Positions 3,076 to 46,840 of a DNA stretch of 64,000 nt are shown here, one piece after another. The notes below the pieces were generated by a model. It was not told the origin of the DNA. It did no database searches and saw only the letters and a list, made by a program, of their open reading frames with translations. Location of the stretch: assembly GCF_045037415.1 (NCBI RefSeq), contig NZ_CP173438.1. The stretch is one strand, 5' to 3'. This DNA comes from Escherichia coli (GTDB lineage Bacteria; Pseudomonadota; Gammaproteobacteria; Enterobacterales; Enterobacteriaceae). Position 1 is the first letter of the stretch. Every line of letters starts with the position of its first letter. The position numbers were made by a program, and so were the translations under genes.

Positions 3076-4722
3076 TCAGGATTTTTTCTTCTCGCGGCTA
3101 TGCAAGCCACGTTTTTCCAGACCACGGTAAATCAGCTGCTGCTGAATAATGGTTACCAGGTTGCTGACGATATAGTACAGCACCAGACCTGACGGGAACC
3201 ACAGGAAGAACACAGTGAAGATGACCGGCATAAAGGTCATGATCTTCTGCTGCATCGGGTCGGTCACAGTGGTCGGCGACATCTTCTGAATGAAGAACAT
3301 CGTTACGCCCATCAGGATCGGCAGGATGTAGTACGGGTCCTGTGCAGACAGGTCGTGGATCCACAGTGCAAACGGTGCCTGACGTAGTTCAACGGAACCC
3401 ATCAGCATGTAGTACAACGCCAGGAAGATTGGCATCTGGATCAGCAGCGGGAAGCAGCCGCCCAGCGGGTTAACCTTCTCAGCTTTGTACAGCGCCATCA
3501 TTTCCTGGCTTATGCGCTGTTTGTCATCGCCCAGACGCTCACGCATTGCCTGAATCTTCGGCTGCAGCATACGCATCTTCGCCATGGAGGTGTACTGCGC
3601 TTTGGTCAGCGGGTACATGATGCCACGAACGATAAAGGTGATGATGATAATGGAGAAGCCCCAGTTACCCACAAAGCTATGGATCCATTTCAGCAGTTTG
3701 AACAGTGGCTGAGAGATGAACCACAACCAACCGTAATCAACGGTCAGATCCAGGTGCGGAGCAACAGCTGCCATTTTGTCCTGAATTTCCGGGCCAACCC
3801 ACAGGGTGCTGTTCATCGCGCCAGTCTGACCAGGCTGAACCAGTACCGGCTGAGATTTATAGCCGATAGCGGCGATGCCGTTACCCAGATTAGCGGTGTA
3901 GAAGTTGTTGGTACCGTCGTTATGCGGGATCCACGCCGTCGCGAAATACTGTTGCAGCATTGCCACCCAACCACCTTTCGAAGAGATGTTCAGGTTTTCG
4001 TTATCGGCAATGGTATCGAATTTGTATTTCTCGTACTTCTCGTCAGGCGTGGAGTACGCCGCACCACGGAAGGTGTGCAGTGCGAAGTTGCTGCTTCCGG
4101 TATCGAGATGCGGTGGCAGAGTGATGGATTGCTTCAACTGACCAAAGGTGGAGATTTCCAGCGGTTTCTCGCCAGCGTTCTGCACGTTGTAGTTGACGTT
4201 GACAGCGTAATCACCACGTTTCAGGACAAACGTTTTGGTAAACGTGTTGCCTGCCGCGTCGGTATACGTCATCGGCACCTGCAGTTCGTTTTGACCTTCA
4301 GCCAGCACATAAGCGTCTTTTTCAACGTTATATAGCGGACGCGGGCCGTTAGCCGGGTTATCCGGGCCATCACGACCGGTCAGACCGCTCTGTGCCTGAT
4401 AAATAAACTGCGGTGAAGTTTCCAGCAGCTGGAACGGCTGGGTAGAGTTCAGCTCTTTCGGGTAAGCCGGCAGCAGGGCCTGCTCAACATCACCACCACG
4501 GGTGTTGATGGTCAGATCAAGCACGTCGGTCTTAACCGAGATCAGTTTCCCCTGGCCACTGGCCGGTACGCCCTGGTCGGCGGCGCTACCCGCTGCGGTG
4601 GTCGTTGTCTGCGTGGTCTGTTGGGCCTGAGGTTGCGGGTTTTTATCCTGCTCCCAGGCTTGCCAGATCATGAAAGACACGAACAGCAAAGCGATGACTA
4701 AAAGATTGCGTTGCGAATCCAT
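3076..4722 (-). CDS. yidC: membrane protein insertase YidC
   Basis: 548-aa ORF starting [23 protein letters not shown], recognised as YidC. Confidence 0.96.
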
Positions 4723-44135: not shown

Positions 44136-44187
44136 TAACTGGCGAGGGTTTCCAGATATCATGAGTTCTGATTACGCAGGAGAACTC

Positions 44188-44640
44188 ATGATCTGGATAA
44201 TGCTCGCCACGCTGGCGGTAGTGTTTGTGGTTGGTTTTCGGGTGCTGACATCCGGGGCCAGAAAAGCGATTCGCCGTCTCAGCGATCGGCTGAACATCGA
44301 TGTCGTACCCGTGGAGTCGATGGTCGATCAAATGGGAAAGTCAGCCGGTGACGAATTTTTACGTTATTTGCATCGCCCGGATGAGTCGCACCTGCAAAAC
44401 GCCGCGCAGGTGTTGCTCATCTGGCAAATTGTCATTGTCGATGGTAGCGAACAGAACCTGCTGCAATGGCATCGGATTTTACAAAAAGCCCGCCTTGCCG
44501 CGCCGATTACCGATGCTCAGGTCAGACTGGCGCTGGGTTTTCTGCGCGAAACCGAACCTGAAATGCAGGATATCAATGCTTTTCAGATGCGCTATAACGC
44601 GTTCTTTCAGCCTGCCGAGGGCGTTCACTGGCTGCATTAA
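44188..44640 (+). CDS. yicN: conserved protein YicN
   Basis: 150-aa ORF with N-terminal TM segment; synteny after adeQ. Confidence 0.8.
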   Translation: MIWIMLATLAVVFVVGFRVLTSGARKAIRRLSDRLNIDVVPVESMVDQMGKSAGDEFLRYLHRPDESHLQNAAQVLLIWQIVIVDGSEQNLLQWHRILQKARLAAPITDAQVRLALGFLRETEPEMQDINAFQMRYNAFFQPAEGVHWLH

Positions 44641-44649
44641 AACCGCTTC

Positions 44650-44715
44650 GTCTTATCAGCCTACAGACCGCGCCTGACCTGGTGGGTGGATAAGGCGTGT
44701 ACGTCGCATCCGGTA
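44650..44715. repeat. REP/BIME-like repetitive extragenic palindrome
   Basis: GGATAAGGCGTGTACGTCGCATCCGG resembles the REP consensus (GCCGGATGCGGCG...CCTTATCC); intergenic after yicN. Confidence 0.5.
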
Positions 44716-44755
44716 TCGGAATTGACAGTAGGTGAACGCATTATCTACGTTCTAT

Positions 44756-45079
44756 TTACAGCAGCACCTCCAGCCCGTGTTTTTGCACAATGCTGAGCAG
44801 TTTTAATGAAATGCCATTGGGGCGTTTAGCGCCACTTTCCCATTTTTGTACAGTTGAAACGCTGGTATTGAGATAGTGAGCGAAGACGGGCTGACTCACT
44901 TTTAATTTTTCCCGCAGTGCTTTTATCTCAACAGGTTGTAAGTCTTGCACGCTGGTCAGGCAGGCTTTGTCAAAAGTACGCATCGTTTCGGCAGAAATAG
45001 CATCGACTCTGGACAATCCAGCCGCTGCGCTGTGAATAGCTTCAAATGCAGGACTTTTAAATTTAGTTTTTGCAGTCAT
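44756..45079 (-). CDS. HTH (XRE-like) antitoxin, HigA-like
   Basis: 107-aa ORF with a C-terminal HTH-like region (...VSQPVFAHYLNTSVSTVQKWESGAKRP...); its start overlaps the upstream toxin ORF by 17 nt. Confidence 0.65.
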   Translation of the reverse strand: MTAKTKFKSPAFEAIHSAAAGLSRVDAISAETMRTFDKACLTSVQDLQPVEIKALREKLKVSQPVFAHYLNTSVSTVQKWESGAKRPNGISLKLLSIVQKHGLEVLL

Positions 45080-45422
45080 AGCAGATCTCTGTCAGTTCTT
45101 TAGTGTTAATCATTGCTGTCAGTTGGGCTTTCGTCAGGAAGGCATAATGCTTTGCAAGTTCACGAAACCCAGCCAGTTCCTGACTATTAATGTTCGACAT
45201 ATCCTGTTTTGCATATAAAAACGTGTAAAACCAATTGCTTCCCCCTTTCGCCAGAATAATTGCACGCTCACGATTTCGGTGAAGGCGCTTTTTAAAAACG
45301 CCACCACCAAGTACATCAGCTTTACCTTGTTCCGTTTCTAAAATGGCCCGGCACAACTCTTCATCTGTTATTGCATGAGACCTGGCTTCCCTTGCAAACC
45401 ATTTGGTTTTAAACACGCGCAT
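45063..45422 (-). CDS. RelE/ParE-superfamily (HigB-like) toxin
   Basis: 119-aa basic ORF directly upstream of and overlapping the HTH antitoxin; toxin-first order is typical of HigB-HigA modules. Confidence 0.6.
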   Translation of the reverse strand: MRVFKTKWFAREARSHAITDEELCRAILETEQGKADVLGGGVFKKRLHRNRERAIILAKGGSNWFYTFLYAKQDMSNINSQELAGFRELAKHYAFLTKAQLTAMINTKELTEICYDCKN

Positions 45423-45649
45423 ATCGTTGAGATCCTGTTATTAAAGTATATCACCAAGTGCAATACTTTATCCCTTATTCCCAACCTAATCGCGAAAATG
45501 CATATCACCTTGCCCTATGATTTTTATTTCTTCGAGCAGCCTCGAACTTTTCCCACAACACCGTAAAAGTTGCAAAAACGTTAAATACGTCACACATTTC
45601 AATGTTAAAGTGGTCGGCTTTCCCTCTGAAACATGCCACGGGTAACACC

Positions 45650-46840
45650 ATGAGTGAATTTATTGCTGAAAACCGCGGCGCGGATGCCATCACCCGACCG
45701 AACTGGTCAGCCGTTTTCTCGGTGGCATTTTGCGTTGCCTGTCTTATTATCGTTGAGTTTTTGCCCGTCAGTTTGTTGACGCCAATGGCCCAGGATTTAG
45801 GCATTTCGGAAGGGGTTGCCGGGCAATCGGTGACCGTAACCGCTTTTGTGGCGATGTTTGCCAGTTTGTTTATTACCCAGACCATTCAGGCCACTGACCG
45901 CCGCTACGTTGTCATTCTGTTCGCCGTTTTGCTGACGCTTTCCTGTTTGCTGGTTTCCTTTGCCAACTCATTCAGTCTGTTGTTAATCGGTCGCGCCTGT
46001 CTGGGGCTGGCGCTGGGCGGATTCTGGGCGATGTCGGCGTCGCTGACCATGCGTCTGGTACCGCCGCGTACGGTGCCGAAGGCGCTGTCGGTGATCTTCG
46101 GCGCGGTTTCTATTGCGCTGGTGATTGCCGCGCCGTTGGGCAGTTTTTTAGGCGAGCTTATCGGTTGGCGCAATGTCTTTAATGCGGCGGCGGTGATGGG
46201 CGTGCTGTGTATTTTCTGGATTATCAAATCACTGCCTTCGCTGCCAGGCGAACCTTCGCATCAGAAACAAAATACTTTCCGCTTATTACAACGTCCGGGA
46301 GTGATGGCCGGGATGATCGCCATCTTTATGTCCTTTGCCGGACAGTTTGCTTTTTTCACTTATATTCGCCCAGTGTATATGAATCTGGCGGGATTCGGTG
46401 TTGATGGCTTAACCCTGGTGCTGCTGAGTTTTGGTATCGCCAGCTTTGTCGGGACATCGCTTTCGTCGTTTATTCTCAAACGTTCGGTGAAACTGGCCTT
46501 AGCGGGCGCACCGTTTGTGCTCGCCCTGAGCGCGCTGGTACTGACGCTGTGGGGAAGCGATAAAATTGTTGCTACTGGTGTGGCGATTATCTGGGGGCTG
46601 ACCTTTGCTTTAATTCCCGTTGGCTGGTCAACGTGGATCACTCGCTCACTGGCCGATCAGGCAGAAAAAGCCGGATCTATTCAGGTGGCCGTTATTCAGC
46701 TTGCCAATACCTGCGGTGCGGCAATCGGCGGTTATGCGTTGGATAACATTGGTCTGACTTCGCCGCTGATGTTGTCCGGCACATTGATGTTGCTGACTGC
46801 ATTGTTGGTGACTGCAAAGGTGAAAATGAAGAAATCCTGA
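45650..46840 (+). CDS. nepI: purine ribonucleoside efflux pump NepI (MFS)
   Basis: [30 protein letters not shown]...; start trimmed to the ATG at 45650. Confidence 0.88.

Follow-up and report, generated by a model that had tools for sequence, protein, structure and literature searches.

A probable type II toxin–antitoxin operon of the HigBA2 class in the gap between nepI and yicN of Escherichia coli

Organization of the locus

The window analyzed in this work is a 64,000-nucleotide stretch of Escherichia coli DNA (contig NZ_CP173438.1, assembly GCF_045037415.1). Between yicN, which ends at 44640, and nepI, which starts near 45650, the ORF listing of the window contains two ORFs on the minus strand, with the toxin gene upstream of the antitoxin gene and a 17-nt overlap between them. 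The features of the locus are as follows.

45063 to 45422, minus strand: toxin gene, 119 aa from an ATG start, HigB-2 / Pfam PF06296 'RelE' family
44756 to 45079, minus strand: antitoxin gene, 107 aa from an ATG start, HigA-2 / YiaG-like
45063 to 45079, minus strand: 17-nt stretch in which the toxin 3' end and the antitoxin 5' end overlap
44659 to 44715, no strand assigned: REP-type palindromic element downstream of the antitoxin gene and of yicN, placed by alignment with K-12
44716 to 45555, no strand assigned: segment missing from K-12-type genomes, which have about 43 nt instead, a 19-nt relic of the toxin gene among them, placed by alignment with K-12

The coordinates agree with a preliminary description of this DNA, which had reported two overlapping minus-strand ORFs of 119 and 107 aa in toxin-first order with a 17-nt overlap, located between yicN and nepI next to a REP element. 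The RefSeq annotation (PGAP) starts the toxin at a GTG at 45416–45414, giving a protein of 117 aa. We fetched 91 related loci and counted 86 of them, the other five including the E. coli reference loci. An antitoxin homolog lies downstream of the toxin homolog in all 86, and 62 have the same −17 overlap, which is likely the site of translational coupling (45063–45079). The REP-type element is also present in K-12, which lacks the toxin–antitoxin (TA) pair, and forms the left edge of the indel; an Rfam match to naRNA4/REP-type elements at 44684–44749 was weak, with 27 bits and under the gathering score.

Family, fold and active site of the toxin

A profile search assigned the toxin to PF06296 with an E-value of 2.3e-41 and 141 bits, residues 1–113 aligning to positions 1–120 of the 120-position model. 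The same family was found in 120 of 120 close homologs of the toxin and in VcHigB2, the toxin of the Vibrio cholerae HigB-2/HigA-2 system (PDB 5JA8, 5JA9, 5JAA, 8A0X). The protein is basic, with a pI of 9.37, and together with the full-length profile match this bears out its earlier portrayal as a basic, RelE/ParE-like protein of 119 aa. Within Escherichia, dN/dS is 0.11–0.27 for the toxin and 0.07–0.20 for the antitoxin, indicating purifying selection on both genes. Given this selection and the full-length PF06296 match, the two ORFs are not a chance pair. NCBIfam held no family for the toxin, and its only match in PHROGs was to an unnamed family. No known anti-phage defense system was recognized, as PADLOC returned no family for the toxin and only generic HTH matches for the antitoxin (RmrA, HTH_VI; E-value 5.6e-6 or weaker).

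The AF2 model of the toxin (pLDDT 88.8, pTM 0.83) was compared with the PDB using Foldseek. Ranks 1–11 were all occupied by VcHigB2 with a probability of 1.0 and TM scores of 0.44–0.63 (0.53–0.63 for ten of them), and other RelE, HigB and YoeB toxins scored below VcHigB2. PDB sequence searches with the toxin, and with a profile of 42 sequences, found no HigB2 match, and hhalign gave the toxin–HigB2 match a probability of only 25%, so that the link to HigB2 rests on Pfam, fold and motif. For the motif, two independent alignments (hhalign and MAFFT --add) placed K44, R46, R53, Y70 and K72 of the toxin on K49, R51, R64, Y82 and K84 of VcHigB2, all five being identical. These positions are kept in 39–41 of 42 family members, except that position 70 is Y or F, and every position conserved at 90% or more in the family is kept in the E. 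coli toxin. The roles of the active-site residues in HigB2-type toxins are taken from previous work (PMC5416850, PMC10098735). VcHigB2 cleaves mRNA in a ribosome-dependent manner and arrests growth, and mutation of R51, R64, Y82 or K84 lowers its activity by orders of magnitude (PMC5416850). Because the K44/R46/R53/Y70/K72 site is conserved, the most likely action of the 119-aa RelE-fold toxin is to cleave mRNA under translation after entering the ribosomal A site.

We also considered whether a toxin with this fold might inhibit growth without cleaving mRNA, through another target, as SehA does on RNase III. Salmonella SehA, which is HigB-like and was predicted to be an RNase, proved not to be one (PMC12817084). 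The toxins of the present clade are extended at the C-terminus by a helix and a strand (residues ~98–115) absent from VcHigB2, and critical residues of SehA too lie in an extra C-terminal helix. In addition, the β2–β3 loop, which is important to the activity of HigB2, is six residues shorter here (PMC5416850). However, SehA is a member of another protein family, and its Y53, R54, K56, D61 and H88 cannot be mapped onto this toxin or its Salmonella ortholog. The canonical active site is missing in SehA but complete in this toxin, which has all five HigB2 residues, and the closer homolog ToxP of Coxiella burnetii inhibits cell-free translation (PMC10098735). A target other than mRNA is therefore highly improbable. 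SehAB was likewise rejected as an ortholog of the pair, a relationship that would have suggested inhibition of RNase III, because the critical residues of SehA (STM14_4845; Y53, D61, H88, Y91, K93, T95, Y97 and Y98 were compared) do not map, position 53 for example being R, and because sehB, whose published deletion covers nt 155–429, is larger than the antitoxin gene.

Architecture of the antitoxin

The antitoxin has an HTH_3 domain at residues 52–96, in its C-terminal half, and its best PDB sequence match is VcHigA2 (5jaa; E-value 8.7e-10; residues 46–102). The C-terminal XRE-type HTH, noted earlier in the 107-aa ORF, is thus homologous to that of HigA2 as judged by sequence. The PDB sequence search detected no similarity between the N-terminus of the antitoxin and that of VcHigA2. 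A motif in this N-terminal region, KSxAFEAIHSAAxGL, is nearly invariant across the antitoxin family and also occurs in AntitoxP, the partner of ToxP. When the toxin and the antitoxin were modeled by AF2 as a linker-fused protein, the antitoxin helices 10–24 and 30–40 had pLDDT values above 90, which express confidence in the helices only and describe no interface. These helices agree with those modeled for the relE-yiaG modules of PF_RelE, where PF06296 toxins, with examples from E. coli, lie upstream of YiaG-like HTH antitoxins and where two N-terminal antitoxin helices contact the C-terminal helices of the toxin in the model of Gerdes 2025 (PMC11980606). That work stresses extended disordered N-termini of the toxins, whereas the E. 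coli toxin has none.

An MqsRA assignment was examined and discarded. The antitoxin matched TIGR03830 only with its HTH half (profile positions 47–119), scoring 41 bits where the cut-off is 61.8, the PF15731 match covers only model positions 53–123, and the 107 aa contain no CxxC motifs, which mark the N-terminal zinc-binding domain of the MqsRA antitoxin.

Promoter and candidate operator

The region upstream of the toxin gene contains three elements that might control its expression.

45442 to 45470, minus strand: candidate operator, an imperfect palindrome, TAAAGTATTGCAC-ttg-GTGATATACTTTA, 20–48 nt upstream of the toxin ATG
45445 to 45453, minus strand: candidate extended −10, TGaTATACT, inside the right operator arm, read by eye
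45433 to 45436, minus strand: Shine–Dalgarno-like AGGA, located 10 nt upstream of the toxin ATG

ACAGGAT is conserved across the enterobacterial loci compared, and TGnTATA(C/G)T is kept in the upstream regions of Salmonella, Citrobacter, Klebsiella and Coxiella. No −35 could be recognized for the candidate promoter. A strict consensus scan of 44600–45700 found neither a promoter nor a terminator, and the extended −10 is therefore proposed from inspection by eye and from the comparison of loci.

Of the 86 loci, 63 have the palindrome TA[G/T]CAC-N3-GTG[C/A]TA in front of the toxin gene, 60 of these at −40 to −48, and it was found nowhere else in 885 kb of loci with both strands counted. The family consensus is TAGCAC-N3-GTGCTA, compared to which the E. 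coli operator is degenerate, reading TTGCAC and GTGATA in its two half-sites. The operator bound by VcHigA2 is one inverted repeat that extends across the −10 (PMC11006873), and the palindrome overlapping the promoter would, in silico, fit autoregulation. The family-wide TAGCAC-N3-GTGCTA provides a ready handle on the regulation of the pair.

Distribution and history of the pair

Of 5426 complete E. coli genomes, 1716 carry the pair in their RefSeq annotation; each has one chromosomal copy, which lies at this site. The pair is therefore no novelty and is to be seen as a routine annotated member of a characterized TA family. The comparison of the yicN–nepI interval across E. coli genomes that had been suggested with the preliminary description revealed the K-12-type junction in 3668 genomes next to the 1716 with the TA allele. 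The same description suggested that K-12 has no TA pair at this position, which is correct, as MG1655 has only a 210-nt spacer with no such genes.

The pair had also been described as inserted, which implies a recent mobile insertion by horizontal transfer with K-12 representing the ancestral empty site. The polymorphism of the E. coli locus would fit this history, and so would the copies with 92–97% identity in Erwinia, Pectobacterium, Edwardsiella and Pluralibacter, which belong to different families and have unrelated contexts, the homologs on 182 plasmid records, and the absence of the species representatives of E. albertii, E. fergusonii and E. marmotae among the matches. The site itself, however, points to the opposite direction of change. 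The pair lies between nepI and yicN homologs, identically oriented and again with the −17 overlap, in Citrobacter koseri, C. amalonaticus and Klebsiella pneumoniae, and likewise in K. oxytoca, K. michiganensis, K. grimontii and K. indica. The nepI-TA-yicN order also occurs in two further Escherichia lineages, and nepI-TA in Salmonella. Synonymous sites are saturated between Escherichia and the other syntenic genera, as expected of long residence but not of recent spread, and the E. coli copies diverge by 0–2.6%, similar to the flanking core genes. The K-12 spacer retains a 19-nt relic corresponding to 45320–45338, that is, toxin codons 29–34, with two synonymous differences. The relic consists of the Escherichia-specific codons ETEQGK, and its alignment score was matched by only one of 500 shuffles. 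Flanking the pair, we found no integrase, transposase, direct repeats, target duplication or other mobile-element signature.

The shared synteny, the K-12 relic and the lack of a mobile signature indicate that the K-12 state is a deletion, and the term inserted does not hold; a recent insertion is quite unlikely. The pair is an old resident of the nepI–yicN gap in Enterobacteriaceae that about a third of E. coli genomes retain; the other two thirds, which are K-12-like, lost it through an ancient deletion.

Integrity of the retained copies

The E. coli genomes that retain the pair include O157:H7, and the strain of the window appears to be ST131-like, judging from strain names. In at least 467 TA-positive O157-type genomes, the ancestral ATG of the toxin has changed to ATA, and translation of the toxin in these genomes may be weak or start from the GTG. 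In the listed TA-positive genomes, the full-length copies are annotated as intact apart from one in a poor assembly. That copy, from HS-02, is 78.9% identical and 'frameshifted', and it was considered as an intermediate of decay; we discarded it because it differs by runs of T, C and G, as is typical of a poor assembly.

The ATA allele raises the question of whether the pair is decaying or domesticated in E. coli, with an attenuated toxin and an antitoxin whose main role is local transcriptional control, for instance of nepI. The degenerate half-sites of the Escherichia operator would agree with such a state. Moreover, the antitoxin is consistently more similar to its homologs in other enterobacterial genera than the toxin is (78–85% versus 65–72% identity), Mixta, Lonsdalea and Winslowiella have toxin pseudogenes beside intact antitoxins, a solitary relative, YiaG, remains in K-12 (a weak NCBIfam match; PMC11980606), and a divergent region of 227 nt is common to the TA promoter and nepI in every syntenic genus. 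Set against these observations are the low dN/dS of the toxin within Escherichia, the intactness of all its family-conserved and catalytic residues, and the full-length copies in the TA-positive genomes. A search for an operator-like palindrome closer to nepI found none. On balance, we regard decay or domestication as unlikely.

Relation to characterized systems

The characterized locus relBE3ST of Salmonella Typhimurium (STM3777-STM3778, SL3743-SL3744) is the positional ortholog of the pair. Located next to nepI, it covers 667 bp, and its proteins of 119 and 107 aa are encoded with a 17-nt overlap; the toxin and the antitoxin are 69% and 79% identical to those of E. coli, respectively. The published cloning primers of relBE3ST match the Salmonella locus that we compared. 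The two loci differ on the yicN side, which is replaced by a PTS/aldolase/kinase cluster in Salmonella, and the name 'relBE' obscures the toxin-first order and the membership in PF06296. The RelE3ST toxin inhibits growth, and RelB3ST co-expressed with it did not neutralize it (PMC4366850).

ToxP/AntitoxP (CBUA0028/CBUA0027) of the C. burnetii plasmid QpH1 belongs to the same family and has the same two-gene architecture. Along its entire length, C-terminal extension included, ToxP is 32% identical to the toxin, and AntitoxP is 55% identical to the antitoxin over residues 5–106. A similar palindrome, TCAC-N3-GTGA, is located between the −35 and the TATAGT −10. Experiments on this system have shown toxicity and rescue, inhibition of translation, and binding to the toxin and to the promoter (PMC10098735). 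In contrast to the E. coli pair, ToxP/AntitoxP is plasmid-borne and serves plasmid maintenance, and ToxP has a longer lysine/glycine-rich β2–β3 loop that is missing from the E. coli toxin.

The V. cholerae HigB-2/HigA-2 system, the best structural match, is a toxin-first PF06296 system whose toxin has the same five active-site residues. In VcHigA2, an N-terminal neutralizing region precedes the XRE HTH, which is C-terminal as in the E. coli antitoxin (PMC5416850), and one inverted-repeat operator lies across the −10 (PMC11006873). Nevertheless, VcHigB2 is only ~20–24% identical to the E. coli toxin, which has the shorter β2–β3 loop and ~20 extra C-terminal residues forming the helix and strand described above. 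The V. cholerae operator, TGTACGC-N5-GCGTACA, and the base-contacting residues of VcHigA2 are unlike those of the E. coli pair, and the system is located in the superintegron.

The earlier assignment of the pair as HigB/HigA-like holds for a toxin-first type II system whose toxin is of the RelE/ParE superfamily and whose antitoxin has an XRE HTH, but not for the HigB/HigA family of Rts1. HigB-HigA of Rts1 and E. coli K-12 (PF05015 / PF09907) shares the toxin-first order and the RelE-superfamily fold, whereas its Pfam family, antitoxin architecture and mode of neutralization are different (PMC5416850). The Pfam search of the toxin gave only PF06296, with no match to PF05015 or PF09907, and E. 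coli HigB (5ifg) is a weak structural match to the toxin model, with a TM score of about 0.31–0.37. The description of the locus should accordingly be corrected to HigBA2/PF06296 rather than classic HigBA, to the same system as Salmonella relBE3ST, and to a loss in K-12 rather than a gain elsewhere.

Proposed mechanism and implications

The literature that we searched contained no experiment on the E. coli pair. Direct support comes from the anatomy and synteny of the locus, from family, fold and conserved residues, from the conserved operator, and from purifying selection; the locus is very probably a chromosomal type II TA operon of the HigBA2 class that has long resided in the nepI–yicN gap and works as follows. 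A single promoter, with the extended −10 inside the palindromic operator, would drive both genes, and the antitoxin would be translated from the start located 17 nt inside the toxin gene. The conserved N-terminal helices of the antitoxin would bind and neutralize the putative mRNA-cleaving toxin, and its C-terminal XRE HTH would dimerize and repress the operon at the palindrome. Upon loss or proteolysis of the antitoxin, free toxin would be expected to arrest translation. The RNase activity, the neutralization and the repression are our inferences.

The product of nepI is a purine ribonucleoside efflux pump. Because RelB3ST failed to neutralize its toxin in trans and the divergent region is shared with nepI, we retained two readings in which the pair is not a plain, self-contained TA system, although we consider them very unlikely: neutralization may need coupling in cis or a third factor, or the antitoxin may also tune nepI. 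If the antitoxin tunes nepI, a translation-arresting toxin would be linked to purine nucleoside export. If either reading is true, loss of the pair in phylogroup A/B1-like strains and its retention in ExPEC/EHEC-type strains might affect phenotype, for example persistence. For the self-contained TA operon that we favor, work on persistence and TA systems in ExPEC, EHEC and ST131 has one more intact TA locus to take into account, which is missing from the K-12 model.

The PF06296 HigB-2/HigA-2 class has been given several names, and relE-yiaG, ToxP/AntitoxP and relBE3ST are all in use for it.

Organization and family of the gene pair

The gap between yicN and nepI contains two overlapping genes that make up a real and intact HigBA2-class (PF06296) type II toxin-antitoxin operon.

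45063..45422, minus strand: toxin ORF, 119 aa, ATG start
44756..45079, minus strand: antitoxin ORF, 107 aa, ATG start
45063-45079, minus strand: toxin/antitoxin overlap, 17 nt, toxin first
~44659-44715: REP-type element adjoining the pair, also in K-12

The factual statements of the preliminary description are all correct, as shown by the ORF list, which returned the two minus-strand frames in toxin-first order with their overlap, by the basic character of the toxin (pI 9.37), by the XRE-type HTH toward the C-terminus of the antitoxin (Pfam HTH_3 at residues 52-96), and by the mapped position of the pair beside the REP element, between the end of yicN (44640) and the start of nepI (near 45650). 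The pair is also absent from K-12, where the MG1655 interval is a 210-nt spacer only. The HigB/HigA-like label holds for the kind of system and calls for refinement in the family: the toxin aligns with Pfam PF06296 ("RelE", the HigB-2 family) over its entire length (E 2.3e-41, 141 bits) and belongs with HigBA2 instead of the classic HigBA of Rts1. At yicN (44161-44640), the longest ORF is 159 aa, compared with 150 aa from MIWIML in RefSeq, and the gene boundaries of the preliminary description are unaffected.

Structural comparison with HigB-2 and HigA-2

Vibrio cholerae HigB-2 (VcHigB2; sequence checked against PDB 5JA9) also belongs to PF06296, but its match is weak (E 3e-8), and searching PDB sequences with the toxin alone or with a 42-member profile gave no matches. 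An AlphaFold2 model of the toxin built from the 42-member alignment was confident (pLDDT 88.8). A Foldseek search of the PDB with this model gave VcHigB2 for each of the top 11 hits, with a probability of 1.0 and TM scores of 0.44-0.63 (0.53-0.63 for ten of them), followed by other RelE, HigB, YoeB and ParE toxins at lower scores. In both hhalign and MAFFT alignments, K44, R46, R53, Y70 and K72 of the toxin correspond to the identical residues K49, R51, R64, Y82 and K84 of VcHigB2, where substitution of R51, R64, Y82 or K84 reduces activity by orders of magnitude (PMC5416850). All family-conserved residues are present in the E. coli toxin, which differs from VcHigB2 in a β2-β3 loop shorter by six residues and in about 20 additional C-terminal residues that form a helix and a strand.

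The solved structure closest to the antitoxin is V. cholerae HigA-2 (VcHigA2), matching over the HTH domain (residues 46-102, E 8.7e-10); the MqsA, NadS, YiaG and DicA models align with the HTH part only, at scores under the cut-offs. The N-terminal motif KSxAFEAIHSAAxGL is near-invariant across the family. In a linker-fused toxin-antitoxin model, built from a paired alignment of 34 pairs, antitoxin helices 10-24 and 30-40 have pLDDT >90. The antitoxin N-terminus would bind the toxin. A 2025 survey of relE-yiaG modules (PF06296 toxins with YiaG-like HTH antitoxins, E. coli examples included) modeled two N-terminal antitoxin helices on the C-terminal helices of the toxin (PMC11980606).

Characterized relatives

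The pair is already annotated, has characterized homologues, and its ortholog in Salmonella has been named. The ortholog in Salmonella enterica is relBE3ST (STM3777/STM3778, SL3743/SL3744; PMC4366850 and supplement), since the published relE3ST cloning primers match the nepI-side locus and its published span equals that of the E. coli pair (667 bp). Like the E. coli pair, relBE3ST encodes 119 and 107 aa with a 17-nt overlap and adjoins nepI; identity is 69% for the toxin and 79% for the antitoxin. Its toxin inhibits growth and its antitoxin did not neutralize it (PMC4366850). Salmonella SehAB, whose toxin inhibits RNase III, was ruled out as the ortholog, as residues and sizes do not map. ToxP/AntitoxP of the Coxiella burnetii QpH1 plasmid aligns over its full length (32% toxin and 55% antitoxin identity) and shares the N-terminal antitoxin motif; experiments on it have demonstrated toxicity, rescue, translation inhibition, and binding of the antitoxin to both toxin and promoter (PMC10098735). 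The E. coli operon is almost certainly functional, and it may be linked to nepI, which is divergently oriented.

Control region

45442-45470: candidate operator palindrome upstream of the toxin, TAAAGTATTGCAC-ttg-GTGATATACTTTA

The right arm of the palindrome includes an extended -10, TGaTATACT, and AGGA lies 10 nt ahead of the toxin ATG. A strict promoter scan returned no promoter, so TGaTATACT marks a putative one. Another 80 loci from species-representative genomes were added to the earlier ones, giving 86 with a toxin homologue. TA[G/T]CAC-N3-GTG[C/A]TA precedes the toxin in 63 of these, at -40 to -48 in 60 of the 63, across Gamma-, Beta- and Alphaproteobacteria, and has no further occurrence in 885 kb (both strands). 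Escherichia copies are slightly degenerate (left T(T/C)GCAC, right GTGATA). VcHigA2 binds one inverted repeat extending over the -10 (PMC11006873), the sequence of which is unlike the E. coli palindrome. A single extra copy of the right half-site, GGTGATATGCATT (minus strand, 45497-45509), is found 54 nt upstream of the palindrome on the nepI side.

Distribution and gene state in E. coli

The full segment is present in 1716 of 5426 complete E. coli genomes, O157:H7 included, always as one chromosomal copy, at 97.4-100% identity and labeled in RefSeq as a RelE/ParE-family toxin and an HTH protein; the K-12-type junction, which lacks the segment, is common to 3668 genomes. Strains SK1144 and MNCRE44 are identical to the window, and public contigs encoding exactly these proteins number at least 1000. 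Comparisons within Escherichia gave dN/dS values of 0.11-0.27 (toxin) and 0.07-0.20 (antitoxin).

In at least 467 O157-type genomes (those with the exact O157 60-mer), the ancestral toxin ATG has become ATA (45420-45422, equivalent to 3201-3203 of the O157:H7 EC4115 locus, L004). RefSeq therefore starts the toxin at a GTG two codons downstream, even where the ATG is kept, as in the window strain; other genera start at ATG (MR[VI]FKT). In EC4115, the neighboring adenine permease gene adeQ (L004 583-1916) is a frameshifted pseudogene according to RefSeq. The region in strain HS-02 (L003, NZ_CP172818.1, 2950-3760) is 78.9% identical and annotated as frameshifted; the mismatches consist of extended T, C and G runs and suggest a local assembly or base-calling error over real divergence.

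Ancestral residence and loss in K-12

The preliminary description took the pair to be inserted. This polarity is wrong because the difference is a loss in K-12. The order nepI-toxin-antitoxin-yicN recurs in Citrobacter koseri and C. amalonaticus, in Klebsiella pneumoniae, K. oxytoca, K. michiganensis, K. grimontii and K. indica, and in two other Escherichia lineages, with nepI next to the pair in Salmonella, and synonymous sites among these syntenic genera are saturated. Within the K-12 spacer (L002 3075-3117), 19 nt match 45320-45338 at 17 of 19 positions, a score equaled by only 1 of 500 shuffles. They correspond to toxin codons 29-34 (ETEQGK, Escherichia-specific), and both differences are synonymous third-position changes; this relic is the trace of an old deletion, in two parts, that removed the operon. 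Neither mobility genes nor target duplications were found at the site. Together, synteny, saturation, the relic and the lack of mobility features lead to the conclusion that the pair is ancestral at the yicN-nepI site and was deleted in K-12-like strains.

Away from this site the family is mobile, with homologues on 182 plasmids. One subclade has probably spread horizontally in recent times, since its toxin and antitoxin copies are 92-97% identical between enterobacterial families and sit in unrelated contexts; they are those of Erwinia psidii (L015), Edwardsiella ictaluri (L018), Pectobacterium zantedeschiae (L026) and Pluralibacter gergoviae (L064), whereas identity among the syntenic copies of Escherichia, Salmonella, Citrobacter and Klebsiella is 64-78%. 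Toxin-antitoxin systems usually decay by losing the toxin before the antitoxin, which may be how solitary regulators like YiaG arise. In Mixta theicola (L028), Lonsdalea quercina (L044) and Winslowiella iniecta (L065), the toxin is cut to 44, 63 and 80 aa beside an intact 107-aa antitoxin. Two ~1-kb contigs (L013, L052) of the actinobacterial MAG Collinsella sp. Map_57_008 carry enterobacterial copies, one being 96% identical to E. coli with a yicN fragment, and are almost certainly contaminating Enterobacteriaceae sequence. Erwinia mallotivora has two copies of the module (L031, L041) about 13 kb apart on one contig, NZ_JFHN01000045.1.
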